DNA from: Escherichia phage EC100
Length of the DNA: 64,000 nucleotides
Sequence record: NC_105587.1
Direction: 5' to 3' (one strand)
Shown here: one piece after another, positions 4,063 to 64,000 of the stretch
How positions within the stretch are numbered: position 1 is the stretch's first letter
How the letters are laid out: each line of letters opens with the position of its first letter
Notes under the pieces: model-generated
Told to the model about the DNA's origin: nothing
Seen by the model: the letters and a program-made list of their open reading frames with translations, nothing else
The model's database searches: none
Program-made: the position numbers and the translations under genes

Positions 4063-4581
4063 TTAGAAATTTAGCTTCATAGCAAGAAAATTTTTCAAGT
4101 TTTCGGTAGACATCTCATCCACATCTACAGGAGAAACAAATCCATTTAATTTTCTAGCAAATTTTTCACCCGCAGGATCGTTGTCCCCGACAGCTACCAA
4201 TTTAAAAGGTAATAATTTCAGTTGCTTTAATAAGGCTTTTCCTGGAGAAGAACCCAACATTGCCAGGGCTGGATAACCAGCGTTATGTAACGCAACTGCC
4301 TTAAATACAGATTCAGCAATCAATACTACTTTTTCATCTCCATTGAGAGTTTCTAGTCCCCATACACACTGTGTAGTAGAATAGGTAAAATATTTAGCTT
4401 CAAAGGGGCACTTACCATGCCCTTTTGGAGCAGAAGGATTATAAGTCTGATAGCCTCTCAACATCCCAGAGAAGTCATACAACGGGACTGTTAGCCATCC
4501 TTCTGGACTTAACCAGCAATGATATTTATCTGTATCAAATCCCCTAGATAAGAGGTGCTGTGTTAGCTCATCAACATTCAT
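4063..4581 (-). CDS. Toprim-domain protein (primase-like catalytic core without zinc ribbon)
   Basis: Toprim signature VVLIAESVFKA (Glu) ... LVAVGDNDPAG (DxD); start moved to the ATG at 4581, which has a GAGAGAGGAA ribosome-binding site. Confidence 0.5.
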   Translation of the reverse strand: MNVDELTQHLLSRGFDTDKYHCWLSPEGWLTVPLYDFSGMLRGYQTYNPSAPKGHGKCPFEAKYFTYSTTQCVWGLETLNGDEKVVLIAESVFKAVALHNAGYPALAMLGSSPGKALLKQLKLLPFKLVAVGDNDPAGEKFARKLNGFVSPVDVDEMSTENLKNFLAMKLNF

Positions 4582-4756
4582 ATTTGGTTCCTCTCTCAAA
4601 TTTATAGATATATTATACAGAGAATTTAGCATTCAAGCAATCAAATTTTTTAACTTTTTAGAGGAAAATCATAGGGCACTTAAGGGTAGCAGATAAGTGG
4701 TGAGGACCAAAATTTGTGACCCCACTAAAAATCCGGGGGCAATTTTTAAAGACCCC

Positions 4757-4785
4757 TTGACATTTTCGCTGGGGTAGTGTAAAGT
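4757..4785 (+). promoter_or_regulatory. sigma70-type promoter (TTGACA, 17 bp, TAAAGT) for the plus-strand low-complexity module
   Basis: TTGACATTTTCGC -35 core shared with the element at 32904; 60 nt upstream of the GGAGG ribosome-binding site. Confidence 0.45.
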
Positions 4786-4848
4786 ATATGTTATGGATGA
4801 GTGATCAAAGAGACACACATTTTCTGTATACTAGGAGGTGTCAAAAAA

Positions 4849-5840
4849 TGACAGAAGAAGTAGCTAAGAGTCCTGAGACCGTCGCTAGCGTTGCGGCAGA
4901 ACTGCACCGTCACGAGGAATCAGATAAGAAAAAGTGGGAGAAGGTCAGAGCCTACGAAGAAAAACATCGTGAACACGATGATGAAGACGATGAAGATGAC
5001 GATGATGAACATTGTCATAAATATGGAAAACATAAAATGCAAGAACCAGTAAACGTATTTACTAATGGCTTCCCTGGCCTACTAGGTGGTTACCCAGCAA
5101 ACGTAGGTGCTTTCGGTGGTGAAGGTATGGGACTATTCGGAGCTATCCTAATCGGCGCTCTATTAACAGGCGGATTCGGTGGTTTCGGTGGATTCGGTGG
5201 ACGTGGTGTTGTTGGTGAAGGTACCGCAGTTGATGCAGTACTTCAGAACCAAGATACCGCTAGTATTCTAGCAGCTATCAACACTACTCGTACAGAAGCT
5301 AACCAGGGTACCGGAGCTGTTTTAAGCGCAGTTAACAATGGTTTTAGCCAGACATCCCAAAACCAGAGCCGTGATACTCAGTCTGTATTAACTACGATCT
5401 ATGGTACAGGTGCTAATCTGTCTAATCAGATCTGCCAGGAAACCCGCAACGTTATTCAGGGTCAGTTCGATCTTTCTCGCCAGATTGATCAATCTTTCGC
5501 AGCTAACCAGATAGCTCGTGCACAAGATAAATTTGATTCTGCACAGATAGCTTTCCAGCAGACTTTACAAACTAATAACCAGTTTGCCGCTGTTCAGGCT
5601 CAGATGTGTGCTAACCAGAACTCTCTGGAACGTCAGATCGCTGAATGTTGCTGTGAACTTCAGACTGCGATCGCTGGTGTAACTACTGCGCGTATCCAGG
5701 ATGAGTTAGATGCATGTCGCCTACGTGAAGCAATCGCTGCGGGTAGCGGTGCTAACGGTCAGGTAATTAATCAAATCGCTTTAAGTCTTGGTGCTATCAC
5801 TCAGACTCTGGCTGGTCTGCAGGCTAAACTGCCGGCTTAA
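4849..5840 (+). CDS. low-complexity protein: acidic N-terminus, Gly-zipper hydrophobic segment, Q/N/T-rich Cys-containing C-terminus
   Basis: GGAGG ribosome-binding site 9 nt upstream of the ATG at 4849; acidic run DDEDDEDDDDE, GLFGAILIGALLTGGFGGFGGFGG, roughly 200 aa Q/N/A/T-rich tail with CCC. Confidence 0.55.
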
Positions 5841-8157: not shown

Positions 8158-8229
8158 TACCGACCGTAGGATTCGAACCTACATCTTCCACCAGTTACGG
8201 CTTGATAATACCAATTATACTAGGACGGC
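8158..8229 (-). tRNA. tRNA-like element (degenerate, possible pseudo-tRNA)
   Basis: T-arm GTAGG-TTCGAAT-CCTAC identical to the one in the 1271-1353 tRNA, acceptor stem with one mismatch, no clean anticodon stem, no CCA. Confidence 0.25.
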
Positions 8230-10230: not shown

Positions 10231-10869
10231 TTACTCTACTTCAATAAAGGTAGAGGCGTTAGACTCGGACAGAACAAAGTCAACATTTGTTGCAAAGTCC
10301 TGGTATTCCTCGTCATGCTGCTTAATCAGCTTCTCCAGTTCCAGCGGATCAATCAAGAATGGAGTATTCTTGAGTTCCAGCAGGTTGAGCTGCATTTTAA
10401 CTTCATCTTCGGAAGTTTTCTTATCGCGGGTAGCCATGCTATCCTGCAAACGCTCGTATTTAGCATCAAACTGTGCTTTCTGCGTATTAAACTTAACCGT
10501 AGCGGCATGGAACTGCTTACGCATGTTAGCCAGCAGTTGAGCTTTAAGTTCCATACAACGCTTAGCTTCAATTGCTTCCGCAACAGTCATCTTACGAGAA
10601 CCGATCTCAACGATTGTTTCTGCATTGCTCTTAATCAGAGCAGCTTTGATACGATCACGCTGGGACATCATATCCAGCAGAGACTGGAAATCTGTCTTAA
10701 TACGCTCAGATAAATCAGCTACTTCGATTGCAGCACCAACTACAACCTGGTTTTTATCCTTACCTTCACCAACAGCGATCAGAAGCTGCTGTTCAGTAGC
10801 TTTACGGATTTTAGCTTCCAGAGATTTGATAGTTGCTAGAGCGCGAGTTTTAGAAATACGAGTAGTCAT
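10231..10869 (-). CDS. hypothetical coiled-coil protein, likely abundant (212 aa)
   Basis: AAGGAAG ribosome-binding site; E. coli-optimal codon usage; no catalytic motif. Confidence 0.55.
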   Translation of the reverse strand: MTTRISKTRALATIKSLEAKIRKATEQQLLIAVGEGKDKNQVVVGAAIEVADLSERIKTDFQSLLDMMSQRDRIKAALIKSNAETIVEIGSRKMTVAEAIEAKRCMELKAQLLANMRKQFHAATVKFNTQKAQFDAKYERLQDSMATRDKKTSEDEVKMQLNLLELKNTPFLIDPLELEKLIKQHDEEYQDFATNVDFVLSESNASTFIEVE

Positions 10870-12463: not shown

Positions 12464-12979
12464 TTACTTCGCTTTACGCTTGCGCGCTGGTTTAGCAGAT
12501 TTACGAGCAGAATCACCCGTGAACTTAATGCCTACACCGTAGCACAGAGCACGAACATTATCTTTACTATACTCTACGCCAAAGATATTTGGCTTAACAG
12601 ACCCAAACTGTCCATGAGTATCACGCAATACATCTGCTGTTGGTTTACGCTTCTGGTTAACTGCCTTCTCATAGTCTTTCATAGACATACCATTACGAGA
12701 GAACAACTCAGCCCCAGCGTTGAAGCTCAGGGAAACTGGGACAGATTTGTGGCCGTAATTTTCTACATACATAACCATTTTGTAAGATTTACGGGTGGCA
12801 TTTTTAGCTTTAGGCTTCTGACGAATCGGAGCCGGATTATTCAGTGCTTGCGCAGCCTGAGCATCGGTAGGGTGCTTACGCAGGTGGCGTTCCAGACGAG
12901 CTTTGCGATTAGCCTCGGTCTGTGGGAAAGTTTTAACTGTAGTAGCTGCTTGAGTTTTTGCGTTTTTCTGCTTAGCCAT
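12464..12979 (-). CDS. lysine-rich basic protein, possibly nucleic-acid binding (171 aa)
   Basis: ATG start; basic N- and C-termini (KARLERHLRKH, KPARKRKAK). Confidence 0.5.
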   Translation of the reverse strand: MAKQKNAKTQAATTVKTFPQTEANRKARLERHLRKHPTDAQAAQALNNPAPIRQKPKAKNATRKSYKMVMYVENYGHKSVPVSLSFNAGAELFSRNGMSMKDYEKAVNQKRKPTADVLRDTHGQFGSVKPNIFGVEYSKDNVRALCYGVGIKFTGDSARKSAKPARKRKAK

Positions 12980-25933: not shown

Positions 25934-26550
25934 TTTTTATTAGTTGACCTCTGATTACCGAGTCATTTTGGCTCGGTTTTCTCTATGCTCAAAGACACTG
26001 ATAGCACCATCCGGAAAATTTTACTTGCAGGATGCCCAAAATCTTGATATAATATTTATATTGAATTGAGAGACATTAGTAAAAATTGATTTTGCTAATT
26101 TTTCTTGTTTACAATCCGCGATACGGAACAGTTAGGCTGCCCCATTAAGGGTTGTTTTAACTATTACTAGTGTTTATATTGCATTAGTTAATCTTCAATT
26201 AAGTGATCTGTGTACCCTGAATTCGGAAAGGTAAATCCAAACCGTGCATATTTAGCTCGTTATATAGGCAGAGTTTTATATGGGGGTGCGAACGAAAAGA
26301 GCAGCGAATGGCGGCACGTACAGTAGTCACCTACCAATAGGATAGTGAGGACAAATAGAATCGGCTTAGCGGCCAATGACCTAGGTTCTATTCTGTATAT
26401 GAGCGAAGAGAGCACAGCACTGAGATATGATAACTTATTCATATTGTTTGATGATAATTGATGTTTACGTAAATAGTAGTAATAGTTGTTCTATTCTTTC
26501 TGAATAGTCCTAAAGAAAAGATTTCGATTAACCAACACAGGAGTATTGTT

Positions 26551-28389
26551 GTGTTTTCTATCCTTCAAGGTCACGCCGGATTTTCTCGTGATTTAGCAAC
26601 AGGTATTTGGCGAGAAATCAAAGCGGAAGATTATACCTTTGCCAAGCGATTCTCGAAAGAGCATCCAGAAGGTAAACCAGCTTCTATGCCCTTCAAATTT
26701 GATGTAATAGAAGAGCACGACCCACAAAGCCTTGCCGAAATGTTACCCCTTATGAGACGTTTAACGTCTGACCCTCATATCGTTGCGGTACGAGGTCGAT
26801 GTCTTGCACCTAAAAATAATGTGCGACGTAAGAAAGGTAACTTTAATGTATCTAATCCTAGTAATATTATTGCTATGGACGTGGATGGTATCCTAGATAC
26901 CGGTGGGTACGACAAATTTAATCTTGTTGGTATGGCCCGCCACATTATTAAGATGTTGAATAGTATTAGTGAGGATATGTTTCCTCTTGATGCAGGCTTT
27001 ATAGCTCATGCATCATCTTCGGCTGGGCTAAAACCAGGTATCCGAATGCACTTAATGCTAGAATCTAACGTCAAGGTAACTCAGGGTCAGCTAAAGTTCT
27101 TATTTACATCTATCAACGATAGTAGTAAGCAAAAATTTGGTTTTGATATTGCCGACCTAGCTTATTATTCATCTGTCCAGCTCCACTATTTTGCCGACCC
27201 CTTATTTAGCGATGGTATTGTTGATCCGTTTAAAGCGGAGAGTAAGCCACGTCTGGTGTATGTTAAAGGTTCGAAAGTAAATTTGCCCAATAATCTAGTT
27301 GACTATGAAACAACTAGAGGGGAGTTTAAGGAAGAGTTTTATTCTTTACTTGATCAAATTAAAGGCAAAAAGATTGCTTCTGATAAAGTAGAAGAAACCA
27401 TCAGCGAGTTAGAAGAGGCTGATGATGGAGTGTATTTGCGTATTATCCCCAAACTATACCATAGAGCATTAGAGGATGGTGTTGATTTTGCATGGCTAGA
27501 ACGTGAGATTAAACCAGCTTTATCTGAATATATTGCAACTAAAGATAACAGTCGTAATATTCAAGATTACTTTAATAACGGTCGTAAGCAGGCTCTCAAA
27601 GCGTTTGTTAATAATTCTAAACGTGAGATTCCATTAAATCTGAAAGGTGTTCCACTTAAGAAATTAGAAGTGGATTCTCCACCAGAAGTTCCATACCTGA
27701 AGATTAATATTGTGCCCCCAAAAGGCCATATAACATTTGTTAAGGCAAGTCTTGGTACGGGTAAAACTACGGCAGTAACTAAATGGCTGGACGCAGGTGT
27801 TCTTCCGGGCAACTTTTTAGCAGTTACAAATACTAGAGCACTGGTATCTTCAAATGCCAAGAAATTTAGTGCAGGACAATACGATAAGTCTGTAGATATG
27901 CTCAACTTTAAGCGTGGAGCTATTGATCGTATGTCCACAACTATTCACTCTTTGCATAAGTTCAAAAGTTTTATTGGGCAAATAGACACCATTTTTATTG
28001 ATGAATGTGACGCTGTAATGAATGACCTATTATTCGCCCCTGTTGTTAAACAACGTCGTGAGTGTATTCAAGTTCTACGTGACATCCTCATGACAGCTAA
28101 GACTGTAATCTTATCCGATGGTGATATTAGTGCTGAGACGATTGAAGCATATGGTTCTCTAATTGATTTTGATAAACCGGTTGCATTTTATAATCATCAC
28201 CGTAAAATGCTGTCAAAAGCTCATGCTTATGAGTTCCCTGATGAGTCCAGTATTTGGGTTGCACTTCAGACTTCTCTAGAGATGGGTGAGAAATCTATTC
28301 TAGTATCTGATTGTGGCCCGGATGAGCTAAATGAGAAAGGTATGGCACTGCGTCGTAATACGGGTGCGTTAGTTAAGGAAATCCATTGA
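26551..28389 (+). CDS. P-loop NTPase / helicase-like protein, N-terminal part (ends at an in-frame TGA)
   Basis: GTG start with AGGAG ribosome-binding site; Walker A SLGTGKTT, Walker B IFIDECDAV; the frame stays open beyond TGA 28387-28389. Confidence 0.6.
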   Translation: MFSILQGHAGFSRDLATGIWREIKAEDYTFAKRFSKEHPEGKPASMPFKFDVIEEHDPQSLAEMLPLMRRLTSDPHIVAVRGRCLAPKNNVRRKKGNFNVSNPSNIIAMDVDGILDTGGYDKFNLVGMARHIIKMLNSISEDMFPLDAGFIAHASSSAGLKPGIRMHLMLESNVKVTQGQLKFLFTSINDSSKQKFGFDIADLAYYSSVQLHYFADPLFSDGIVDPFKAESKPRLVYVKGSKVNLPNNLVDYETTRGEFKEEFYSLLDQIKGKKIASDKVEETISELEEADDGVYLRIIPKLYHRALEDGVDFAWLEREIKPALSEYIATKDNSRNIQDYFNNGRKQALKAFVNNSKREIPLNLKGVPLKKLEVDSPPEVPYLKINIVPPKGHITFVKASLGTGKTTAVTKWLDAGVLPGNFLAVTNTRALVSSNAKKFSAGQYDKSVDMLNFKRGAIDRMSTTIHSLHKFKSFIGQIDTIFIDECDAVMNDLLFAPVVKQRRECIQVLRDILMTAKTVILSDGDISAETIEAYGSLIDFDKPVAFYNHHRKMLSKAHAYEFPDESSIWVALQTSLEMGEKSILVSDCGPDELNEKGMALRRNTGALVKEIH

Positions 28390-28404
28390 AACTCTACCTC
28401 AGAT

Positions 28405-29340
28405 GTGGATATTCGACGTATTCTGGATTACACAACTAATGAACTAATTGATCAACAAATTGATTGCTTATTATGTAGTCCATCCGTAACGAGTGGTGTT
28501 GACTTTAACTATTTTGATAACGTATTTGTGATTACTAGAACTAGTAATCAAGCGCCAAACATGCGTTTCCAAGCAATCAGGCGCGACCGTGGTGCTCAGA
28601 ATATCTATTATTTTATTGATAAATCCACTAGTGGATTCTCCGCAGGTTCTGAACAATATAATATTGATGAGGGTTGGCTGGAGTTAGCACAGCAATTATA
28701 TGCACGTCGCAGGGAGCTGGAATCTAGGAACTATACTAGTACTTTACGTTATTACTTGCTTGATCAGGGTGCAACTATTGATATTTTCAGTGAAAGCTGG
28801 GGAACTATTGAAGGTGCTGGTAAAGAGTACACAGAAGAGCGAATCAAAGCTATTCTGCACTCAACTCCTGATTATTGTGCTCCACGTCATGCGGATGCGT
28901 ATGAAGCTAAGCTACTTCTTGTTCGCTATTATCATCTCGAGTCTATTAAAGATGTAACAGTTGAGCATGTTGAACAATATATAAAAGATAAACCGAATGA
29001 TCGAGCTGCATTCTTCCATAAGATGCACGAGATGTTCTGGGAAGATATTAAGAAGTGTTCAAATGTGACCATTAAACCATTCATAGAGGCTCTGAAAGGT
29101 AAGAAGAAAGATTTCTTCCTTAAAACCGGTCAGAGTGCTAACCCAAAATATGCTAGAATGTATCTTGGCATGATGGGTATTGGTAAGGATATGAACACGG
29201 AGAATATCGTAGACTGGTACAGAACCTACTGTAAAATCGAGTGTATGCCAATTCCTTATAAATTCATGACTGACGAGGAAAAACATATGCACGATGAAGC
29301 AATGTCAGAGCTAGGTGCTAGAAATGACAGTGAAGAATAA
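28405..29340 (+). CDS. helicase-like protein, C-terminal continuation (same frame as 26551..28389)
   Basis: Same reading frame as the upstream ORF, five codons after its TGA; begins with helicase-like block LLCSPSVTSGVDFN. Confidence 0.5.
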   Translation: MDIRRILDYTTNELIDQQIDCLLCSPSVTSGVDFNYFDNVFVITRTSNQAPNMRFQAIRRDRGAQNIYYFIDKSTSGFSAGSEQYNIDEGWLELAQQLYARRRELESRNYTSTLRYYLLDQGATIDIFSESWGTIEGAGKEYTEERIKAILHSTPDYCAPRHADAYEAKLLLVRYYHLESIKDVTVEHVEQYIKDKPNDRAAFFHKMHEMFWEDIKKCSNVTIKPFIEALKGKKKDFFLKTGQSANPKYARMYLGMMGIGKDMNTENIVDWYRTYCKIECMPIPYKFMTDEEKHMHDEAMSELGARNDSEE

Positions 29341-29557
29341 AAAATGGGAAACAAGGAAGTTTCCAGTAAAAGAACGTAAAGTTCCTGTTTATGATACTTC
29401 GGAAAAGCTATGTAGGGTGGTACCACATAGATTAGCTGGTATCCCTAACATATCCGAGTGGTTACTTAAACAACGGAGGACTAACGTATCTCTTCGCATA
29501 GGGTTTGAGTTAGATAAAGTATATGCTGAACTTTCTTCTTTGCTCAAGGAATCGTAA
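29315..29557 (+). CDS. hypothetical protein (about 80 aa)
   Basis: Overlaps the 3' end of the helicase-like gene; basic N-terminus. Confidence 0.35.
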   Translation: MLEMTVKNKKWETRKFPVKERKVPVYDTSEKLCRVVPHRLAGIPNISEWLLKQRRTNVSLRIGFELDKVYAELSSLLKES

Positions 29558-29565
29558 AAATTTAT

Positions 29566-29594
29566 TTGCTTTCAGGAAAATTTTTCTGTATAAT
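29566..29594 (+). promoter_or_regulatory. promoter matching phage T5 PN25
   Basis: TTTATTTGCTTTCAGGAAAATTTTTCTGTATAATAGATTCATAAATTTGAGAGAGGAG matches the PN25 sequence as I remember it, including the downstream ATGGCTGGTTCTCGC. Confidence 0.8.
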
Positions 29595-29625
29595 AGATTC
29601 ATAAATTTGAGAGAGGAGTTTAAAT

Positions 29626-31881: not shown

Positions 31882-32853
31882 ATGACCAATGTAAAAGAAT
31901 TTATTAAACGCTGTCAAGAAGCATATTATCAAGGCATGTCTTTAATCTCTGATGAAGAATATGATCGCCTGGTAAAACGCTTCCCGTTAGAGGAAGAGAT
32001 CGGGCCTAAGGGTGATATTCCACACCTATATCGTATGTATTCTTTACAGAAAGTTTATTATAACCGTGGGGATAAACCACCATTTAATCCTTTAGGTCAG
32101 GTAGAAACTGATAAGTTAGATGGTTGTGCAATTTCTCTGCTATATATTAACGGTGAATTTGTTCAAGCATTAACCCGTGGTAATGGTATTCTGGGAAATG
32201 ATGTAACAAGCAACGTAAGATTGCTGAACATTCCTAAAAAGATTTCCCAAAAAGTACCTACTCAAATCACTGGTGAAGTTCTAATTACAAAAGAAGTAGA
32301 AAATAAACGTAACTTTGCCTCTGGTGCTATTAACCTCAAAGATAGTGATGCTTTCGTACAACGCATTGGAGAAGGCGGTTTAATCTTTGTTGCTTACGGT
32401 ATCCAATGTTCTGCTGAATCTGTAGGTATTACAGAAGCATATTTAAAAGATATGCTTTGGCTAGAGAAGGAGAACTTCTTAACAGTTGTTAATGTGCGTT
32501 CCTTTTTTAAATGGATTCCTACGGACGGTAAAGTTGTTCGTATTAATGACAATAACAAATTCTTCCGTGAAGGCTGGACTAATAAATTCCCTCGTGGAGC
32601 ATTCGCCATTAAAGAGGATGAAGAAGGCGAAATTACAACTCTTACTAAAGTTGAATGGCAGGTAGGGGCTTCTGGTAAAGTAACTCCAGTTGGTTATTTC
32701 GAACCGGTAATTATTGATGATGCTACAATTGTTAAAGCGACTCTTAATAACGTTGATTATATTAACTCTCTTGATCTAGAGATCGGTTGCCAGATTCGAG
32801 TGATTCGTGCTGGTGGTGTAATCCCGTGCATAGTAGAGCGAGTATACGATTAA
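31882..32853 (+). CDS. NAD-dependent DNA ligase, N-terminal adenylation/OB part (split gene)
   Basis: LigA-type adenylation block KLDGCAISLLYINGEFVQALTRGNG; own T5-class promoter upstream. Confidence 0.8.
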   Translation: MTNVKEFIKRCQEAYYQGMSLISDEEYDRLVKRFPLEEEIGPKGDIPHLYRMYSLQKVYYNRGDKPPFNPLGQVETDKLDGCAISLLYINGEFVQALTRGNGILGNDVTSNVRLLNIPKKISQKVPTQITGEVLITKEVENKRNFASGAINLKDSDAFVQRIGEGGLIFVAYGIQCSAESVGITEAYLKDMLWLEKENFLTVVNVRSFFKWIPTDGKVVRINDNNKFFREGWTNKFPRGAFAIKEDEEGEITTLTKVEWQVGASGKVTPVGYFEPVIIDDATIVKATLNNVDYINSLDLEIGCQIRVIRAGGVIPCIVERVYD

Positions 32854-33055: not shown

Positions 33056-33835
33056 ATGAAAATCGAAATTCCAACACAATGTCCCTCTTGTGGTTCTAAG
33101 CTAGATCTTGTCAACGGACAATTATTCTGTCGTAATAAGTCCAACTGTCCAGCGCAATCAAGTAAGTTAATTGAGAACTTCTGTTCAAAAATGAAGTTAA
33201 AGGGCTTTGGCCCAAAAACTATTGAGAAGCTGGAGCTGACGAAGATTTCAGAACTATTTTACCTAACCGAAGAAGATTTGGTTAGAGCCGTGGGTAGCAA
33301 GGTTGCCGCTAAGTTAATTAGCGAATTAAATACTAAAGTTCGCGGAGACATTGACTTTGGTTCAGTTCTCGGTTCTTTAGGAATCCCTCTAATTGGAGAG
33401 GTTGCAGCAAAGAAATTGTCCCAAAATTGCACCAGTTTTCAAGATGTGAAGGCTGACGGCAAGGCTGGAGAAAACTATAAAGCCTGGCTAAATTCCCCAC
33501 AAGGCAAGGATGTTATCGAATTACCGTGGAAATTCACAACTGGTATTAAAGGTGCTAAAGCTGAGGTCATCATTACTGATGGTCTAGTAGCCCAGCCAAA
33601 TGGAATCGCGGTGTGTATTACCGGGTCTTTGCAAGATTTTGCAAATCGAACGGATGCAACAAACTATTTAGAAGGTCTAGGATATACGGTTAAGAAATCC
33701 GTTACCAAAGACGTCAAATACCTAATCTGTGAGGATGAATCTAAGCGTTCTTCCTCATCTTATAAGAAAGCCGAAACGAATGGGATAGAAATCCTGTCGA
33801 TTAAAGAACTATTGGAGAAAAATAATAATGTCTAA
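33056..33835 (+). CDS. NAD-dependent DNA ligase, C-terminal zinc finger/HhH/BRCT part (split gene)
   Basis: Zinc finger CPSCGS...C...C, helix-hairpin-helix region, BRCT-like C-terminus; AGGAAG ribosome-binding site and own promoter. Confidence 0.75.
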   Translation: MKIEIPTQCPSCGSKLDLVNGQLFCRNKSNCPAQSSKLIENFCSKMKLKGFGPKTIEKLELTKISELFYLTEEDLVRAVGSKVAAKLISELNTKVRGDIDFGSVLGSLGIPLIGEVAAKKLSQNCTSFQDVKADGKAGENYKAWLNSPQGKDVIELPWKFTTGIKGAKAEVIITDGLVAQPNGIAVCITGSLQDFANRTDATNYLEGLGYTVKKSVTKDVKYLICEDESKRSSSSYKKAETNGIEILSIKELLEKNNNV

Positions 33836-57959: not shown

Positions 57960-60900
57960 GAATTTCCTAATGTTTTCAGACTAGCACCGTTCTCATTCAG
58001 AGCTAATTCTACTGCGTCTCTTAGAGCACTACTATTACTAGAAGCAAACTCTCTAAAACTTGCAGCATCCATAGCACTAATATTCAAGATGATAGGTCTT
58101 CCTGAAGTTGAGTTAGATGAGGTTTTTAACTCATCATTAGGTGTAGCTTTCATAGGAACCATAGGGGTAACTACTTCTGTACCATGCTCACCCATTTGAT
58201 AGCTAACCCCAGGGTACATATTACCACCCTCAGCACGAGGAACGAAAGAGTTAGCACCGCCTATGCCTTTATCGCCACGAATATAAGATAATTCACCAGC
58301 ATTAGCAGACATGGACACATCTATATTCTTCTGACGTTCTCCTAAGGTTAAATAACTAGTTGTATCCGCCCCAGAATCTGCAATAGAAGACATGCCAGAT
58401 GCAGAAGATGCTTGTGCTAACGCCAATGCACCCGCTAAACCTGCCGCAACCATTAAAGGAATAGAGAACGGGTATGGTACAGCTGTTGCCGCTTGCATTA
58501 CAGCTACTGCAGTTTGGATGATAATCTGCTTCTTAGCTGCGTCTTGTTGAATCTTCAGCTTTTCAGCTTCCAACTTCTTCAACTTAGCTTTAGATGCTTC
58601 TGATTTACCATCACGTTTCTGTTCTGCTGCAATAGCCTGATCAATTGCACTAACTTGTTGGCTAGTACTATATTGAATCATCGAGGCTACAGTCTGCATA
58701 CCAGAAGCAATCATAGACGTAGTATCTAGGGATCCCTGGGAGAACTGAATCATAGAGTTAGTTAAATTACCCATGCTTTGAGCTACAGCAGTTGCTTCGG
58801 AATTTAACTCAGATAGTTTAGAAATTGCTTGGTCATACGAAGACATCCTATTCTGCATATCAGCAAAATCTTTATCTGCTCCAGATAGGCCAGTTGTAGG
58901 AGTATAAGTAGCTCCAACAGAAGAACCTACCTGTTGCTGCATCTGAGCATTACGTTGTGCTGTTAAAGCTGACATCTGAGCCCTTGTCTTAGCTATTTCA
59001 GCATTCCAACGCATTTGCTCATTAGCGTTACCTTTGGTAAGTTCTTTCATCTGAGTATAAAAATCTAACTGCATTTCCATTTTTTGCATTTCCCCTGCCA
59101 GAGGGAACATGGAAGTTAGAGTATTTTCAAAGGCTTCTTGCCTTTTACTGGTCATTTCAGCTTGCTGGTTCTGACGGAATTTCCATATTTCACGTTCAAT
59201 TTGGGCTTGAGAACGTCTAGACTGTTCAGCCTCTTTCTGTTTGTCCGCTTGTTTTGTATACCATTCGTACTTCTCTTTTTCAATGGTCAATTCAAGATTT
59301 AACTGTGCTAGACGATACTGAGTATCTGTCATAGTACGGTTATTTAAGAGAGCTATCTCACGATCTACACCAAGAATTTTATCTGTGTAATCCTTGACCT
59401 TCTTCTGAGCTTCCATACCCTGATTGGTAAGTTTAAGTTTCTCCAGCTGAATTTTTTCAATTTCTTTCTCAACAGCTTTATTTCCCTGGTTTGTTTGAAG
59501 AACACGGCGTAAAGCAGCTTCTTGCTCTTCTAACTGTTGGAGTTCTAAACGCCTACCGGCTTCCTGTGCTTTTTCTTTATCCTTAGTTTGGTTATATACA
59601 TCAGCTATCTTCTGTTGAACTGCTAACTGATTTTTAGTTTCATTACCGGTTAGTTTAACATACTCAGATAAGGCCTGAGACGCAGTTTTCATTTCAGACA
59701 GAGTGTTATAGCCTAGGTTAAGATTTTTAACGTACTCATCTGCACTTTTACCAGTACCTAGAGATAGAGATTCTATATTTTTTATAGCATCTGCTAAAGT
59801 AGCACTAGTTTTAGCAGCAGTATCTGTATTCTGAGCAACGTTCTGTATGTCATTAGCTAAGTCACTAGCCGTTTTCTTAGTCTGATTGTACGCTTTCTGC
59901 TGCTCAGTTAGTCCTTTTAATACAGTAGAGTTAAAATCGTATACAGCATCAGGATCAGTAGTATCTCTCTGTAGATTAATCTGTTTCTGAAACTCTGGAT
60001 TAGCTTTTGCAGCAGCAGCACCCGCAGCTTGATAGGCTGACTTCCAAGCATTAAGGTTTTCAGTAGAATCTTCTACTTCCTTACCTAGTCTGGTTACTTG
60101 TAGACCCATAGCCGCAGTTTCTTCTACGAACTTTTTATTAGCTTCGGAAGCACCAGCAGCAGCAAGACCAACAGGAATACCTTCACCAACTTGACGTATG
60201 GCTAGTTTTGTATAGAAATCTGCTTGTTCCATTCGTTTGTCGAACTCAGATTTTAGCTTATTACGCTTATCAAGAGATTCCTTATACATATCTAGAGCTT
60301 TATTATAGCCTTCTTCAGAAGCAGCCAAACTTAAAGCAACAGCACCAACGTTGGTAGGATCTATCTGTCTATTAGTTTTTTCTTGCGCTCTAGCTGCCTC
60401 AGCAGATATCGAAGCCTGAGAAGTGTAGAATACAGTATTGATAGCATCAATTACTGGCCCTAAATACTTAGCAGCAGCCTGCTGAATCTTTCTCAGGGCG
60501 GCATCTGCATTAGCAGCAAATTGCTCCCATGGAGTTGCACGTAGTACTTCATCTAGGTAGCCAAACCTCTTAGTAGATTCAGCAATTACCGCGTTAGCGT
60601 ATGCTTGTTGTTTCTGGAAAGTGGTAAGACTATTAACATTATATGTTATACCTGTGTTTGCAGCATTTAACTGTTTAACATAATCGGCGTATGCGTCATT
60701 AAGACGGATGGTGACACCAAGTTCATCCAGAAGTTCGATTTCTTGTTTAGATACGCCCTTAATTACACGGTTAAGTGCATCAGTCATATCAACACCAAGA
60801 ACAGCAGCAGCACGACGAGCTACTAAACCAAATTTATTAAGTTGTTCGGCATCAAATCCATAAGCAGATGCTGAAGATGCCTGTCTCATTGCTTCCTCAA

Positions 60901-61639
60901 AAGAAATAGCATATCCAGCAGCTTCTTGTAGTGATCTAGCAAGGGTCTGAACAGGAGTACCTGTCTGAGTACCTACTATAACACCAAATTTTTCTAGACG
61001 ATTTAGCTGGTCACCTAGTTTAAGTTGTTCGAACGCTGATTGCAAAACGAAGATGTTGGAAGCAAGAGCTGCGTACATAATAGGTAAACTACCACCTATC
61101 TTAGCCATTGCTGCAAAATCACGAGTTGCACCACGTGCTGAACCAGAAGTATTACCAATAGCTCTAGAAGCTCTACCAGCGGCACCAGCAGTGTCATTAA
61201 AACCCCTAGCTGTGCCACCTAATGCTCTATTAGTATCATATAACCTATCTTGAACTTTCTCTGTTGCAGCTGCAACATCATTGCCCATTGTTTTAACAGA
61301 TCTAGAAACCCCATCGAATCCAACTTCTAGCTTATCAGCTACCTCTATCATTGTAATAGCAAGGTCGTCCAGCTTAGTTCCTATATCATTAATAGATTTA
61401 GTAACACTAAGCATACCCCTACTAGCTTGCATTTTAGTAAGACTTTTTGCTGCTCTATCTGCTGCCCTCTCAATGGAGTATAGAGTTTTGGGCATTTTAC
61501 CTAACTGTTCATTCGTTAGCTCAGAAGCCGCAGCAGCATTCTCTAATGCATCAGATACGTTTTCAATAGACTTTGCAGTACGAGTTGCCCCCTTCTGTTT
61601 AACGTCTATTAGTAATTCTCGTATTAGCTTATCAGTCAT
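57956..61639 (-). CDS. tail tape measure protein (T5 pb2-like)
   Basis: 1227 aa, extended Ala/Gln/Glu-rich coiled coils, hydrophobic Gly-rich segment near the C-terminus. Confidence 0.85.
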   Translation of the reverse strand: MTDKLIRELLIDVKQKGATRTAKSIENVSDALENAAAASELTNEQLGKMPKTLYSIERAADRAAKSLTKMQASRGMLSVTKSINDIGTKLDDLAITMIEVADKLEVGFDGVSRSVKTMGNDVAAATEKVQDRLYDTNRALGGTARGFNDTAGAAGRASRAIGNTSGSARGATRDFAAMAKIGGSLPIMYAALASNIFVLQSAFEQLKLGDQLNRLEKFGVIVGTQTGTPVQTLARSLQEAAGYAISFEEAMRQASSASAYGFDAEQLNKFGLVARRAAAVLGVDMTDALNRVIKGVSKQEIELLDELGVTIRLNDAYADYVKQLNAANTGITYNVNSLTTFQKQQAYANAVIAESTKRFGYLDEVLRATPWEQFAANADAALRKIQQAAAKYLGPVIDAINTVFYTSQASISAEAARAQEKTNRQIDPTNVGAVALSLAASEEGYNKALDMYKESLDKRNKLKSEFDKRMEQADFYTKLAIRQVGEGIPVGLAAAGASEANKKFVEETAAMGLQVTRLGKEVEDSTENLNAWKSAYQAAGAAAAKANPEFQKQINLQRDTTDPDAVYDFNSTVLKGLTEQQKAYNQTKKTASDLANDIQNVAQNTDTAAKTSATLADAIKNIESLSLGTGKSADEYVKNLNLGYNTLSEMKTASQALSEYVKLTGNETKNQLAVQQKIADVYNQTKDKEKAQEAGRRLELQQLEEQEAALRRVLQTNQGNKAVEKEIEKIQLEKLKLTNQGMEAQKKVKDYTDKILGVDREIALLNNRTMTDTQYRLAQLNLELTIEKEKYEWYTKQADKQKEAEQSRRSQAQIEREIWKFRQNQQAEMTSKRQEAFENTLTSMFPLAGEMQKMEMQLDFYTQMKELTKGNANEQMRWNAEIAKTRAQMSALTAQRNAQMQQQVGSSVGATYTPTTGLSGADKDFADMQNRMSSYDQAISKLSELNSEATAVAQSMGNLTNSMIQFSQGSLDTTSMIASGMQTVASMIQYSTSQQVSAIDQAIAAEQKRDGKSEASKAKLKKLEAEKLKIQQDAAKKQIIIQTAVAVMQAATAVPYPFSIPLMVAAGLAGALALAQASSASGMSSIADSGADTTSYLTLGERQKNIDVSMSANAGELSYIRGDKGIGGANSFVPRAEGGNMYPGVSYQMGEHGTEVVTPMVPMKATPNDELKTSSNSTSGRPIILNISAMDAASFREFASSNSSALRDAVELALNENGASLKTLGNS

Positions 61640-61653
61640 ATTTTATTTTTCCC

Positions 61654-61687
61654 AATAAAAAAGGCTCTGGGCAAATCACCCAGAGCC
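61654..61687 (-). terminator. hairpin terminator/attenuator between tail chaperones and tape measure gene
   Basis: GGCTCTGGG-CAAATCA-CCCAGAGCC followed on the minus strand by TTTTTT, 15 nt before the tape measure ribosome-binding site. Confidence 0.55.
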
Positions 61688-61721
61688 AAGCCTCATCGTG
61701 GAACGCCCATTGGAGGAAACT

Positions 61722-62213
61722 TTACCGTGCTCGAGATTTGGCATGCGGCTTAACGTTAGGTATTCTACCGTTTTGCGGCTTATGCTTCTCAGCACGTTTA
61801 CGTGCAGCGTCTACAGCTTTAGCATCAAATATATTGATAATGTGTAGAACAAATTCTTTTTCTATAGGGTCGGTAATCCCATAAATATCAAATAAAACAC
61901 CTAAAGCAGCCTTGTCTTTACCTATAAAGATAGGGAAGTCACCAGGTATGAAACAGTCAACTAGACTATTATAAATATTCATACTAATAGCTACAATAGG
62001 TGGAAAGTCTTCAAGTTCAACAGGCATAGCCTTAGGATCAGGTTCTATACCCATTGACTCACAAAGTATTAAATATTGTTGTTTAGTCATTTTAGATGCT
62101 GAGCTTTTAATACACTTATCTGCAAAATCAGCAACAGCATCTAGTAGTTCTTTACGCTTTTGAGCTACGAAAAGTGTCGAGGTGGAACACTGTCTGGTTG
62201 ATCCAAGAATCAA
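61722..62213 (-). CDS. tail assembly chaperone, downstream frame (possible frameshift extension)
   Basis: Overlaps the upstream chaperone ORF by about 60 nt in the +1 frame; first internal ATG is only at codon 42. Confidence 0.4.
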   Translation of the reverse strand: MILGSTRQCSTSTLFVAQKRKELLDAVADFADKCIKSSASKMTKQQYLILCESMGIEPDPKAMPVELEDFPPIVAISMNIYNSLVDCFIPGDFPIFIGKDKAALGVLFDIYGITDPIEKEFVLHIINIFDAKAVDAARKRAEKHKPQNGRIPNVKPHAKSRAR

Positions 62214-62556
62214 ACGCAGCAGAGTTCTGCATAAGCATTACAGCATTATCACGACTAAATGGAACTTCAGTAGTAGGATCAGCATCTGTCTCAATCAGCA
62301 TCAGCTTTTCAACGTCACCTACAGTCAAACCAGTCCAACCTTTAATTGCAGCATCAACGAAAGCTTCAATAAACTTATCGTCATCCTGTACTTGAATTAG
62401 AGTACCATTAACCCACTCATCGCGTTTGGCGGAAGAGATAACACGCTTAGAGGTAGCACGAGACATATAGTTAAGCTCTAGCTTAAAGTTTGGCATACCT
62501 GGGTATGAAAGAGTAATAGTACGGGTATCAAGGGTAATATCTTTTAAATTAATCAT
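62152..62556 (-). CDS. tail assembly chaperone
   Basis: Start moved to ATG 62556 with GGAGA ribosome-binding site; sits between the p140-like and tape measure genes. Confidence 0.55.
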   Translation of the reverse strand: MINLKDITLDTRTITLSYPGMPNFKLELNYMSRATSKRVISSAKRDEWVNGTLIQVQDDDKFIEAFVDAAIKGWTGLTVGDVEKLMLIETDADPTTEVPFSRDNAVMLMQNSAAFDSWINQTVFHLDTFRSSKA

Positions 62557-63451
62557 TTTTAATTTCTCCAAAGAAATCTATTCTCACTGGGTCTGAAGAA
62601 GCAGTAGGTATAATATCCCACTCAACTTTATACACATCTGAGAAATCTAGGCGTTTTGTAATACGTGCTAAAGGAAAATCTATAGAAATACTATTATTTC
62701 TTATATTTAAAGGTACATCGGTCTCTGGTTCGATATTGTAAACCATATCTCCAGCAAAACGTTTTAAGTAATATAGAGAAATGGTTGCCGAAGCATTCAT
62801 TTCATTTACATAGGCTCTTTTATTATTATAGATTTTATTTATATCAAAAACACTCTTATCTTCTCTCCAAGAGCATTGCTGTTGAAAAGATAAAGAGGCG
62901 GAAATAAGGCCAGGTAAGATGCTACCGTTAGTAGAAACTATTACCGGGCTATAAGACATTGCTTCACCCTGTATAATAGAAGCTGCTTCTCTATATGTAG
63001 ATACTTCGGAGAATTTCCCTGACTCAATACCAACGTTAAGAATTGGTATATTCTTATCTAAAGAAAAATCTACTGTAGATACATAACAGTTTTCAAAATA
63101 TACACAGTTGTTATCTTTATTTACTATATAGATATTAAACATAATAGGTTCAATATTGTTACTATATAGTGGTAGTAAGAAAGTATTACCTTTTCTGTCA
63201 AAACCTAGCCATTCAAAAAAGTTAGCTTCAGTAAGTGTATTACTAAAATTTATTGCTAGAGAGATAGAAGAAGGAGTTTGAGCATTTATAATAGAGTCTG
63301 CATAGTTAGTTCTACGATGAATAGTCCTACGAAGGGTCTTAAATTCTTCGTAGGATGTTTGTACATCATAGTTTGATAGGGCATCAAAATGAAATGCCCT
63401 ACCATCATACTCAACTATAACTTTTGACTCTCGCATTAGAGAGTAGTACAT
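62549..63451 (-). CDS. minor tail protein (T5 p140-like)
   Basis: 300 aa directly downstream of the tail tube gene; call by synteny and size. Confidence 0.5.
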   Translation of the reverse strand: MYYSLMRESKVIVEYDGRAFHFDALSNYDVQTSYEEFKTLRRTIHRRTNYADSIINAQTPSSISLAINFSNTLTEANFFEWLGFDRKGNTFLLPLYSNNIEPIMFNIYIVNKDNNCVYFENCYVSTVDFSLDKNIPILNVGIESGKFSEVSTYREAASIIQGEAMSYSPVIVSTNGSILPGLISASLSFQQQCSWREDKSVFDINKIYNNKRAYVNEMNASATISLYYLKRFAGDMVYNIEPETDVPLNIRNNSISIDFPLARITKRLDFSDVYKVEWDIIPTASSDPVRIDFFGEIKND

Positions 63452-63455
63452 TTAT

Positions 63456-64000
63456 TTAACCACCAGCACTAACTGTGATAGTTTTAGTACCTTCTACACC
63501 AGAACCGTCTTTAGCTACAGCCTTCACAATAACTGCACCAGTTTTAGAAGCGTCAGCTGTTAATAGCCCAGATTCTGCATCAATCGTAGCTGCGTTACCA
63601 CTAGAAATAGACCAAGTTACAGCCTTATTAGTAGCTTCTGGAGGTGTTACCTCAACAGACATCTGTAAAGTATTACTATTTGTTACAGAAACAGCCTCAC
63701 CTGCAGATTTAACTATAATGGATTTAACGGGAACTGGAGGAGTTTTAGCACCATCTCCGGTAGCAATTAGATTCGCTATTGTAGTTTTGGTATACTTGTT
63801 AGAGAAGCCTAAGTATCCTTCGTCACCAGTATCCAAATCAGTAGGAATAGCTTTAAACTCTACTGAAGTACCAAGTACATCATCAGTCTCAATAGTAGGA
63901 ATGTTAACGTGCGCCTGTTTAGCAACTAACACAGCTGCCGGACGTTCATCATCGTATTCACCACCCAAAATAAGTGCAATTTCAAAACGGTTAACTACCT
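63456..64000 (-). CDS. tail tube protein (T5 pb6-like), C-terminal part only; 5' end lies beyond the window
   Basis: ORF runs open to the window edge; C-terminal Ig-like block (AVTWSISSGNAATIDAESGLLTADASKTGAVIVKAVAKDGSG). Confidence 0.6.
   Translation of the reverse strand, partial: VVNRFEIALILGGEYDDERPAAVLVAKQAHVNIPTIETDDVLGTSVEFKAIPTDLDTGDEGYLGFSNKYTKTTIANLIATGDGAKTPPVPVKSIIVKSAGEAVSVTNSNTLQMSVEVTPPEATNKAVTWSISSGNAATIDAESGLLTADASKTGAVIVKAVAKDGSGVEGTKTITVSAGG

Follow-up and report, generated by a model that had tools for sequence, protein, structure and literature searches.

A private in-frame TGA interrupts the T5.108-type helicase gene of Escherichia phage EC100

T5.108 of coliphage T5 (YP_006936.1, 'replication origin binding protein'; the AY692264 label reads D2 'putative DEAD/DEAH box helicase') and its orthologues in phages BF23, SP01, EC122 and EC105 lie at the same locus, with a SIR2-type gene upstream and PN25 and D2/D3 downstream, and each is a single open reading frame (ORF) of 927-929 aa. 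On the function of T5.108, our literature search found no genetic or biochemical study, only a CRISPRi-ART fitness table. The herpesvirus protein HSV-1 UL9 (PF02399; PDB 9hgj and 9hgi) has in common with these phage proteins an SF2 core with motifs I-VI, followed by a helical C-terminal region. Phages are also known to carry genes in pieces, in which replication or nucleotide-metabolism genes are present as two expressed ORFs, often by way of a homing endonuclease, the split ribonucleotide reductase of Aeh1 being one example.

The window, by which we mean the whole 64,000-nt stretch of DNA that was analysed, comes from a Tequintavirus (T5-like coliphage) to which EC105 and EC122 are almost identical. 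It carries the same gene at the same locus, except that codon 613 reads TGA rather than TCA. The gene and its immediate surroundings are laid out as follows.

26551..29340, plus strand: whole gene, the T5.108 orthologue, annotated 'replication origin binding protein', with one interruption
26551..28389, plus strand: N-terminal ORF with a GTG start, 612 aa, covering the AEP-like domain, a helical linker, RecA1 and the first half of RecA2 (motifs I-IV)
28387..28389, plus strand: in-frame TGA, codon 613; the private base is the G at 28388, which is C in relatives (TCA, Ser)
28405..29340, plus strand: mechanical C-terminal ORF from a GTG, 311 aa, covering the remainder of RecA2 (motifs V and VI) and the C-terminal helical domain
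29324..29557, plus strand: small downstream ORF, a T5.110 homologue, overlapping the end of the gene by 17 nt
29557..29625, plus strand: conserved early promoter PN25 of T5, before the D2 homologue (ATG 29626) and nearly identical to the annotated T5 PN25

An initial sequence-only reading had described two ORFs sharing one frame and separated only by the TGA at 28387-28389 and five sense codons, and this description is borne out: 26551..28389 and 28405..29340 are in the same frame, and the codons between the TGA and GTG 28405 are AAC TCT ACC TCA GAT. With both of its stop codons counted, internal TGA as well as terminal TAA, the gene has 930 codons. Its DNA is 97.5% identical to the T5 locus, and in EC122 and EC105 the identical coordinates are annotated as one CDS. 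A GGAG Shine-Dalgarno sequence at 26540-26543 precedes the GTG at 26551, with an anti-SD duplex energy of -6.9 kcal/mol. Against the phrog_3712 profile (927 positions), the first ORF matched positions 1-613 (1175 bits) and the second positions 620-927 (616 bits), and since both match collinear parts of a single profile, chance juxtaposition of two ORFs is excluded. The two ORFs are one gene with a single internal stop, the sole case among the 69 annotated genes in the window's first 58 kb, and the ORF at 28405..29340 shows no sign of being an independent gene. The match to the T5.108/phrog_3712 family is collinear from end to end, and the uninterrupted chain of ~900-1050 aa found in that family is broken here; judged at the level of sequence, the window carries a disrupted allele of a family member.

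The interruption comes down to one base. Over 6101 nt around the gene, the sole difference between the window and EC122 is at 28388, G here versus C (TGA versus TCA, Ser613), and this C-to-G transversion, which turns Ser613 TCA into an opal TGA, is private to this genome. The comparison with T5 and its relatives that the sequence-only reading had proposed as a check found the stop in none of them: it is absent from T5 (T5.108), BF23, SP01, the four EC sister phages, 33 IMG/VR loci and 74 protein clusters. All 33 of the IMG/VR loci have a Ser codon (TCA, TCT or TCC) at the position of the stop, and every one of the 74 clusters, reaching down to 30% identity, is a single chain of 861-1050 aa. 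A 45-nt megablast probe that could seed only across the G retrieved 0 phage records with the TGA allele, versus 57 with the corresponding C probe, and an exact 34-mer scan of IMG/VR gave 0 matches. A degenerate 23-mer run against metagenomes gave two matches, both to unrelated contigs and by chance. Exact-protein look-ups found neither the 612-aa nor the 311-aa product on record, and a database of 5.8 billion proteins held no homologue near 612 or 311 aa. In an alignment of 75 sequences, column 613 is S, K or A, never Trp or Cys; it is flanked by the invariant H612 and S615, and D618 is near-invariant.

The protein, of ~929 aa, starts with a putative AEP-primase-like domain, continues as an SF2 helicase resembling herpesvirus UL9 and ends in a helical domain. 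Its structure was read from the AlphaFold model of an intact homologue, 93% identical, with a pLDDT of 87.9 (cluster P0001 and the intact sister protein share 93% identity). The motifs and the last domain are placed as follows.

26878..26886, plus strand: D110-V-D112, an acidic pair and candidate AEP motif I, invariant in 53 of 53 homologues
27754..27768, plus strand: Walker A/SF2 motif I, GTGKT, residues 402-406, family-invariant and aligning with UL9 motif I
28000..28011, plus strand: Walker B/SF2 motif II, DECD, residues 484-487, family-invariant and upstream of the stop
28477..28506, plus strand: SF2 motif V, SPSVTSGVDF, residues 643-652, with S643, P644, S645, G649 and D651 invariant in 75 of 75
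28570..28593, plus strand: SF2 motif VI, QAIRRDRG, residues 674-681, with the arginine finger; Q674, A675, R678 and R680 are invariant
28675..29337, plus strand: all-helical C-terminal domain, residues ~709-929, from the model's secondary structure; absent from the truncated product

The model of the N-terminal domain resembles PrimPol and the AEP domain of MPXV E5, and D110 and D112 would presumably have a catalytic role. Pfam PF02399 (Herpes_ori_bp) matched residues 389-533 at 26.8 bits versus a cutoff of 20. The chain combines two features of a UL9-like SF2 helicase: it exceeds the PF02399 gathering score and carries Walker A and B, and it has two RecA domains, the second of them with motifs IV-VI, as seen in the homologue model. 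Foldseek placed HSV-1 OBP/UL9 first (E 1.7e-15), followed by DEAD-box, RecQ, Hel308 and Mfd helicases, and its alignment to UL9 ran over 556-608 columns, exceeding two RecA domains. In the homologue model the strands and helices of RecA2 extend over residues 544-689, and residue 613 sits in a loop within this domain, after the strand at 608-611 and before a helix. The stop is therefore inside RecA2, past motifs I-IV and ahead of V and VI, and the helicase fold spans it. This agrees with what had been suspected from the letters, namely that Walker A and B lie upstream of the stop, a helicase block lies directly downstream and one fold extends across both: GTGKT and DECD come before the stop, motifs V and VI after it, and the best PDB match is HSV-1 UL9. 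In HSV-1 OBP, the glycine of motif V is structurally critical, and the arginine of motif VI, R389, makes contact with the gamma-phosphate of ATP (PMC12543377). For the C-terminal domain, analogy with UL9 points to a putative role in DNA binding.

The account that we favour, and hold to be probable, is a recent, unselected nonsense mutation in a T5.108-type helicase gene, fixed in this isolate, for example in plaque purification or amplification. We infer that the change is real; if so, translation would end at 28389 and give a 612-aa product that retains the AEP-like domain together with RecA1 and one half of RecA2, and is devoid of motifs V and VI (and hence of the arginine finger) and of the C-terminal domain. 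With these parts missing, the truncated product should be dead as a helicase and is probably unstable. Near-cognate decoding of the UGA by host Trp-tRNA could still give full-length S613W protein at a level of a few per cent; in E. coli K-12, UGA is read through at a basal rate of ~2% (37 C) or 4% (25 C) (PMC10570021). The allele, if real, is loss-of-function or leaky; the phage may get by without the gene in laboratory culture, or the leak may suffice for its survival. Polarity from the premature stop would reach just one gene, the T5.110 homologue at 29324..29557, as PN25 stands before the D2 homologue and shields the genes downstream.

Viability of the stop allele is plausible. In a genome-wide CRISPRi-ART screen of T5, T5.108 was scored 'Not Fit', meaning that its knock-down was without significant effect (PMC11879866, supplementary file 16). 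It should be considered that the primase and several virion genes were likewise 'Not Fit' in this screen (PMC11879866), so that the screen is insensitive for T5 and is weak evidence for the dispensability of T5.108. The gene is conserved in the T5-like phages sampled, from Escherichia, Salmonella, Klebsiella, Pectobacterium, Erwinia and Vibrio, down to 30% identity; such conservation suggests that it matters in nature, and a viable null would be somewhat unexpected. Trp never occurs at position 613 in homologues, and the readthrough product might for that reason be impaired.

The main alternative, which we regard as the less likely one yet a serious one, is that the TGA arose as an error of sequencing, assembly or consensus calling, or as some other artefact of the record, and that the true phage has TCA (Ser) and with it an unbroken gene of 929 aa. 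A single base sets the window apart from four otherwise identical sister genomes, in a gene that is strongly conserved and uninterrupted everywhere else, which counts for an error. Within its first 58 kb, the window departs from both EC105 and EC122 at just three sites: one change is synonymous, one gives S105C and the third is the stop at 28388. The S105C change, at 10556, is in no other record, which tells us that further unshared calls are present in this genome, and EC105 has a probable local assembly artefact at 61660-61677, so that the records of this series are not flawless; both observations count for an artefact. However, the private SNP at 12785 is common to the independent phage ECOP18, so that at least part of the private variation is genuine, and position 28388 lies outside any homopolymer or repeat. 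For the EC sister genomes, MiSeq 2x250 reads were assembled with a coverage of 187-636x (PMC9583813), and at the depth of these sister genomes substitution errors in a consensus are rare.

The remaining possibilities, like the favoured account, take the TGA as real, and they fare far worse. That the phage depends on bypass of the stop, with either an S613W leak or a two-piece RecA2 reassembled non-covalently supplying enough protein, strikes us as very unlikely. Trp never occurs at position 613 in homologues, and the readthrough product might for that reason be impaired.

More doubtful again is a functional two-chain helicase, in which translation would stop at 28389 and start again at GTG 28405, and RecA2 would be rebuilt non-covalently from two chains of 612 and 311 aa. 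The GTG is just 16 nt beyond the stop, close enough for termination-reinitiation coupling, and the break would fall, according to the model, where a loop connects a strand to a helix. Yet no Shine-Dalgarno sequence precedes GTG 28405, where the anti-SD energy is +0.4 kcal/mol versus -2.8 to -11.7 for 16 nearby annotated starts, and an out-of-frame ATG at 28403 overlaps this GTG and would compete with it. The later in-frame starts at 28528, 28561 and 28756 have no anti-SD pairing either. Residues 613-618, including the invariant S615 and the near-invariant D618, would be absent from both chains. No relative examined is split. The two hallmarks of a natural split gene, a ribosome-binding site of its own for the second part and conservation of the split, are both lacking at this locus, and the re-initiation at GTG 28405 offered by the sequence-only reading is not supported. 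As the change is one private base, selection for a split cannot have shaped it. Splitting by a homing endonuclease was considered and rejected: in T5 the HNH homing endonuclease gene hegI is immediately downstream, past the end of an intact 928-aa gene, whereas this genome is without hegI.

In E. coli, termination at UGA is comparatively leaky when the next base is A, which counts for programmed recoding of the TGA, be it through efficient readthrough, a suppressor tRNA of the phage, insertion of selenocysteine or a reassigned code. Host Trp-tRNA does read a few per cent of UGA (PMC10570021). Against this, ARAGORN and Rfam on the window, and ARAGORN on the rest of the EC122 tRNA cluster, detected neither a tRNA with a UCA anticodon nor a phage tRNA-Trp. 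The odd tRNA-like gene at 8158-8229 ('tRNA-OTHER') was rejected as a suppressor, as its anticodon arm is degenerate and non-pairing and is without UCA. RNA structure around and downstream of the stop was no stronger than in shuffles (z -0.79), giving no SECIS-like or stimulatory hairpin. For selenocysteine, neither a SECIS 3' of the UGA nor Cys or Sec in column 613 was seen; for programmed readthrough, neither a conserved stop nor a stimulatory structure or suppressor tRNA. TGA ends 14 of the 69 genes and occurs internally just once, which speaks against an alternative code with TGA as sense, and recoding in any of these forms is barely credible. Among the four explanations originally put forward, readthrough and a two-subunit split fall away, being unsupported because the stop is conserved in no relative; a pseudogenising mutation and a sequencing error remain.

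In an annotation, a single disrupted gene, or a corrected one, should stand in place of the two ORFs, and neither two genes nor a recoding site should be entered. The import for biology is little. If the mutation is real, this isolate would be a ready-made natural opal mutant of T5.108, and a viable null, if true, would mean that growth in laboratory culture does not require this AEP-primase/UL9-like helicase, conserved though it is among T5-like phages. Should bypass after all prove true, the locus would offer a natural helicase that tolerates a break in a RecA domain, or an essential phage gene running on the basal UGA leak.

Set beside the known systems, the locus recalls phage genes in pieces in that two collinear ORFs likewise make up one enzyme fold. 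Unlike those genes, it has no mobile element, second ribosome-binding site or conserved split, and its break removes invariant residues. The likeness to HSV-1 UL9 runs through the shared helicase core, with a PDB profile match of E 1.2e-05 and a best Foldseek match of ~560-610 columns, at an identity of just 14-15% and with low TM-scores (0.31-0.38). The phage protein has in addition a putative AEP-primase-like N-terminal domain of ~370 aa that UL9 is without, and ATP-dependent unwinding and origin-specific DNA binding are putative activities of the phage protein. Opal nonsense alleles of phage genes, leaky via host tRNA-Trp, match in having the same single-base UGA, with truncation and a few per cent of readthrough as the expected outcome (PMC10570021). 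The present allele was met in a deposited-type genome sequence and not by selection in a suppressor host.

The sequence-only reading had described two open reading frames in a single frame, separated by a TGA and five in-frame sense codons, with Walker A and B upstream of the stop and a helicase-like block downstream. That layout proved accurate. The elements of the interrupted gene (26551-29340, + strand) are listed here.

26540-26543, + strand: GGAG, Shine-Dalgarno sequence of ORF1, graded good
26551 to TGA 28387-28389, + strand: ORF1, GTG start
27754-27768, + strand: Walker A, GTGKT, 5' of the stop
28000-28011, + strand: Walker B, DECD, 5' of the stop
GTG 28405 to TAA 29340, + strand: ORF2 as called mechanically, same frame as ORF1
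28477-28506, + strand: motif V block SPSVTSGVDF, 3' of the stop
28570-28593, + strand: motif VI block QAIRRDRG, 3' of the stop

The gene encodes a 'replication origin binding protein' of the T5.108 type, in which an AEP-like domain is joined to a UL9-like SF2 helicase. Both ORFs match phrog_3712 ('replication origin binding') collinearly, at positions 1-613 and 620-927 of 927. Pfam PF02399 (Herpes_ori_bp) covers residues 389-533 above its gathering score, and in a search among solved structures the family profile matched the HSV-1 UL9 origin-binding protein. An AlphaFold model of an intact, 93% identical homologue (cluster P0001), built on an alignment of 53 sequences, was confident (pLDDT 87.9). 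Its best PDB match by Foldseek was HSV-1 OBP (9hgj, E 1.7e-15, ~560-610 aligned columns), followed by many two-RecA SF2 helicases including Mss116, Hel308, BLM, Mfd, RecQ and WRN. The modelled domains are as follows.

Residues ~390-540: RecA1
Residues ~544-689: RecA2, with strands 544-549, 558-562, 582-586, 608-611, 639-642, 657-662 and 684-689
Residues 709-929: all-helical domain

Residue 613 occupies the loop directly after strand 608-611 and ahead of helix 619-635, and hence the stop falls inside RecA2, past motif IV and ahead of motifs V and VI; the earlier suggestion that the fold spans the stop was correct. The surrounding pattern, IHSxSxxD(x)3R(x)IL, resembles the stretch that DEAD-box and RecQ-type helicases have after motif IV.

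The N-terminal third (residues 1-375, 26551-27675) has no Pfam match and models confidently, with weak similarity to the cyanobacterial plasmid Rep CyRepA1. Because it resembles AEP primase-polymerases (PrimPol, the poxvirus E5/D5 AEP domain, herpes UL52) and carries invariant D110xD112, H167 and D202, the whole protein looks, from the model, like a fusion of an AEP primase with a UL9-like SF2 helicase.

Comparison with T5 and relatives, as had been proposed, found the stop in none of those examined. A single CDS is annotated at this locus in T5 (T5.108, 928 aa), BF23 (obp, 929 aa), SP01 (927 aa), vB_Sen_I1, EC122 and EC105, all with TCA at the aligned codon. The 33 IMG/VR loci (63-100% protein identity) carry TCA (30), TCC (2) or TCT (1), and the frame is open in every one containing the whole gene. 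Among 5.8 billion proteins searched, 74 clusters matched, with identities reaching down to 30%; they come from Escherichia, Salmonella, Klebsiella, Pectobacterium, Erwinia and Vibrio phages, measure 861-1050 aa without exception and include no homologue near 612 or 311 aa. At column 613 the 75 aligned sequences have S (49), K (16) or A (10), whereas H612 and S615 on either side are invariant in 75/75. A 45-nt megablast probe centred on 28388 G, which needs that base in order to seed, hit no phage record; its C version hit 57. The allele was also missing from an exact IMG/VR scan, a degenerate metagenome scan returned only two matches, both unrelated chance matches, and neither truncated protein (612 or 311 aa) is on record in the gene-position index.

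The gene region is matched by 453 phage records, at 97-98% identity in T5, BF23, oldekolle and Shivani. The nearest are Escherichia phages EC104, EC105, EC122 and EC142, T5-like (genus Tequintavirus) isolates from bird faeces in Copenhagen, sequenced by MiSeq at 200-640x (PMC9583813). Over 6101 bases around the gene, the sole difference from EC122 is 28388, G here and C in EC122. Against EC105 the full window shows 20 differing positions, made up of six isolated SNPs plus a 14-base block (61660-61677). Within the first 58 kb the window departs from both EC105 and EC122 at just three positions.

10556: Ser105Cys in a small gene
12785: synonymous
28388: TCA (Ser613) to TGA

By these alignments the stop is due to a single-base substitution private to this genome, and the few private differences identify the window as one more member, slightly distinct, of this sister-isolate cluster. 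The second private substitution, 10556 (CDS 10231-10869, - strand, codon 105), changes TCT to TGT; no phage record matched a 45-nt probe for it. Only in the 61660-61677 block do differences from EC105 cluster: a terminator-like hairpin, GGCTCTGGGCAAATCACCCAGAGCC, in the window and EC122 is replaced by repeated TTTTCCCAATAAA in EC105, which has the look of a local assembly artefact of that record. The tail-gene region, 58415-64000, matches EC105 at 99.8% identity but EC104 at just 96.6%, and its divergence from EC122 is much greater (~3700 position-wise mismatches, which may include a frame offset). Since upstream sequence is virtually identical in all sister phages, this uneven divergence suggests mosaic exchange of tail modules between the sister isolates. 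Sister annotations also place 'DNA ligase' in two consecutive CDSs (31882-32853 and 33056-33835, +, ~200 nt apart), a division apparently conserved in this group, unlike the helicase stop.

A pseudogenising mutation and a sequencing error had both been offered as explanations; both remain, and sequence alone singles out neither. We consider a real mutation at 28388 fairly probable. An error or artefact in the record is a possible but less likely account: the gene is strongly conserved, the allele occurs in no other genome and the record series is imperfect, as in the EC105 block, but the related records are high-coverage Illumina consensus and the site is not repetitive. Moreover, the private SNP at 12785 is shared with the independent phage ECOP18, and private variation is therefore natural at least in part.

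Programmed readthrough and a two-subunit split with GTG re-initiation had also been raised. TGA is an ordinary terminator here, closing 14 of 69 annotated genes in the first 58 kb, and no gene but this one has an internal stop; neither the nine tRNAs in the window nor the eleven in the rest of EC122's tRNA cluster include a UCA anticodon or tRNA-Trp. At the stop and 3' of it, the RNA folds no more stably than shuffled controls do (z -0.79), hence no SECIS or stimulatory hairpin. The 17 nt 5' of GTG 28405 offer no anti-SD pairing (+0.4 kcal/mol; 16 nearby annotated starts, -2.8 to -11.7), an out-of-frame ATG (28403) overlaps it, and the next in-frame ATG is codon 671, past motif V. Two chains would omit residues 613-618, and with them invariant S615 and near-invariant D618. 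Above all, a stop restricted to a single genome cannot be a device shaped by selection, and a functional split or recoding is very improbable.

A tenth tRNA-like sequence, 8158-8229 (- strand), reaches 35.5 bits with Rfam RF00005, whose gathering score is 29, and is 'tRNA-OTHER' in sister records, uncalled by ARAGORN. Its acceptor, D and T arms fit; the 18-nt anticodon region has no stem, recognisable anticodon loop or UCA. A decayed or non-canonical tRNA is one possibility.

If the mutation is real, translation would end at 28389, giving a 612-aa protein that would keep the AEP-like domain, RecA1 and half of RecA2, and lack motif V, motif VI and the C-terminal domain. In HSV-1 OBP the motif V glycine is required for stability and the motif VI arginine touches the ATP gamma-phosphate (PMC12543377). 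From these missing parts we infer loss of helicase function; the half RecA2 domain is probably unstable. UGA leak is lower in non-K-12 hosts with fully active RF2, and is favoured by a following A. A small amount of full-length S613W protein would be expected without any special signal, because Trp-tRNA decodes UGA at a basal ~2% at 37 C and ~4% at 25 C in an E. coli K-12 reporter (PMC10570021). Two features lie downstream.

29324-29557, + strand: small ORF overlapping the gene end
~29557-29625: strong, conserved T5 early promoter PN25, ahead of the D2 homologue

Because PN25 is conserved there, polarity should be limited to the overlapping ORF. T5 differs in carrying the HNH homing endonuclease hegI (T5.109; T5 record 4425-4943) between T5.108 and the small ORF; hegI is absent from the window. 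Genome-wide dCas13d knock-down in T5 scored T5.108 'Not Fit' (six guides, mean -3.65, p 0.34) and DNA polymerase 'Fit'; primase and several virion genes were also 'Not Fit', and the screen therefore misses genes expected to be essential (PMC11879866, supplementary file 16). Viability of a T5.108 nonsense mutant is plausible.

The locus should be annotated as one disrupted gene, and a real mutation would make this isolate a natural mutant for asking whether a conserved replication protein is dispensable in culture. Since every defining feature tested for recoding and split-gene classes failed, the interruption belongs to none of them; as far as sequence can tell, one genome's copy of an already known gene has acquired an ordinary opal nonsense change or has been miscalled.
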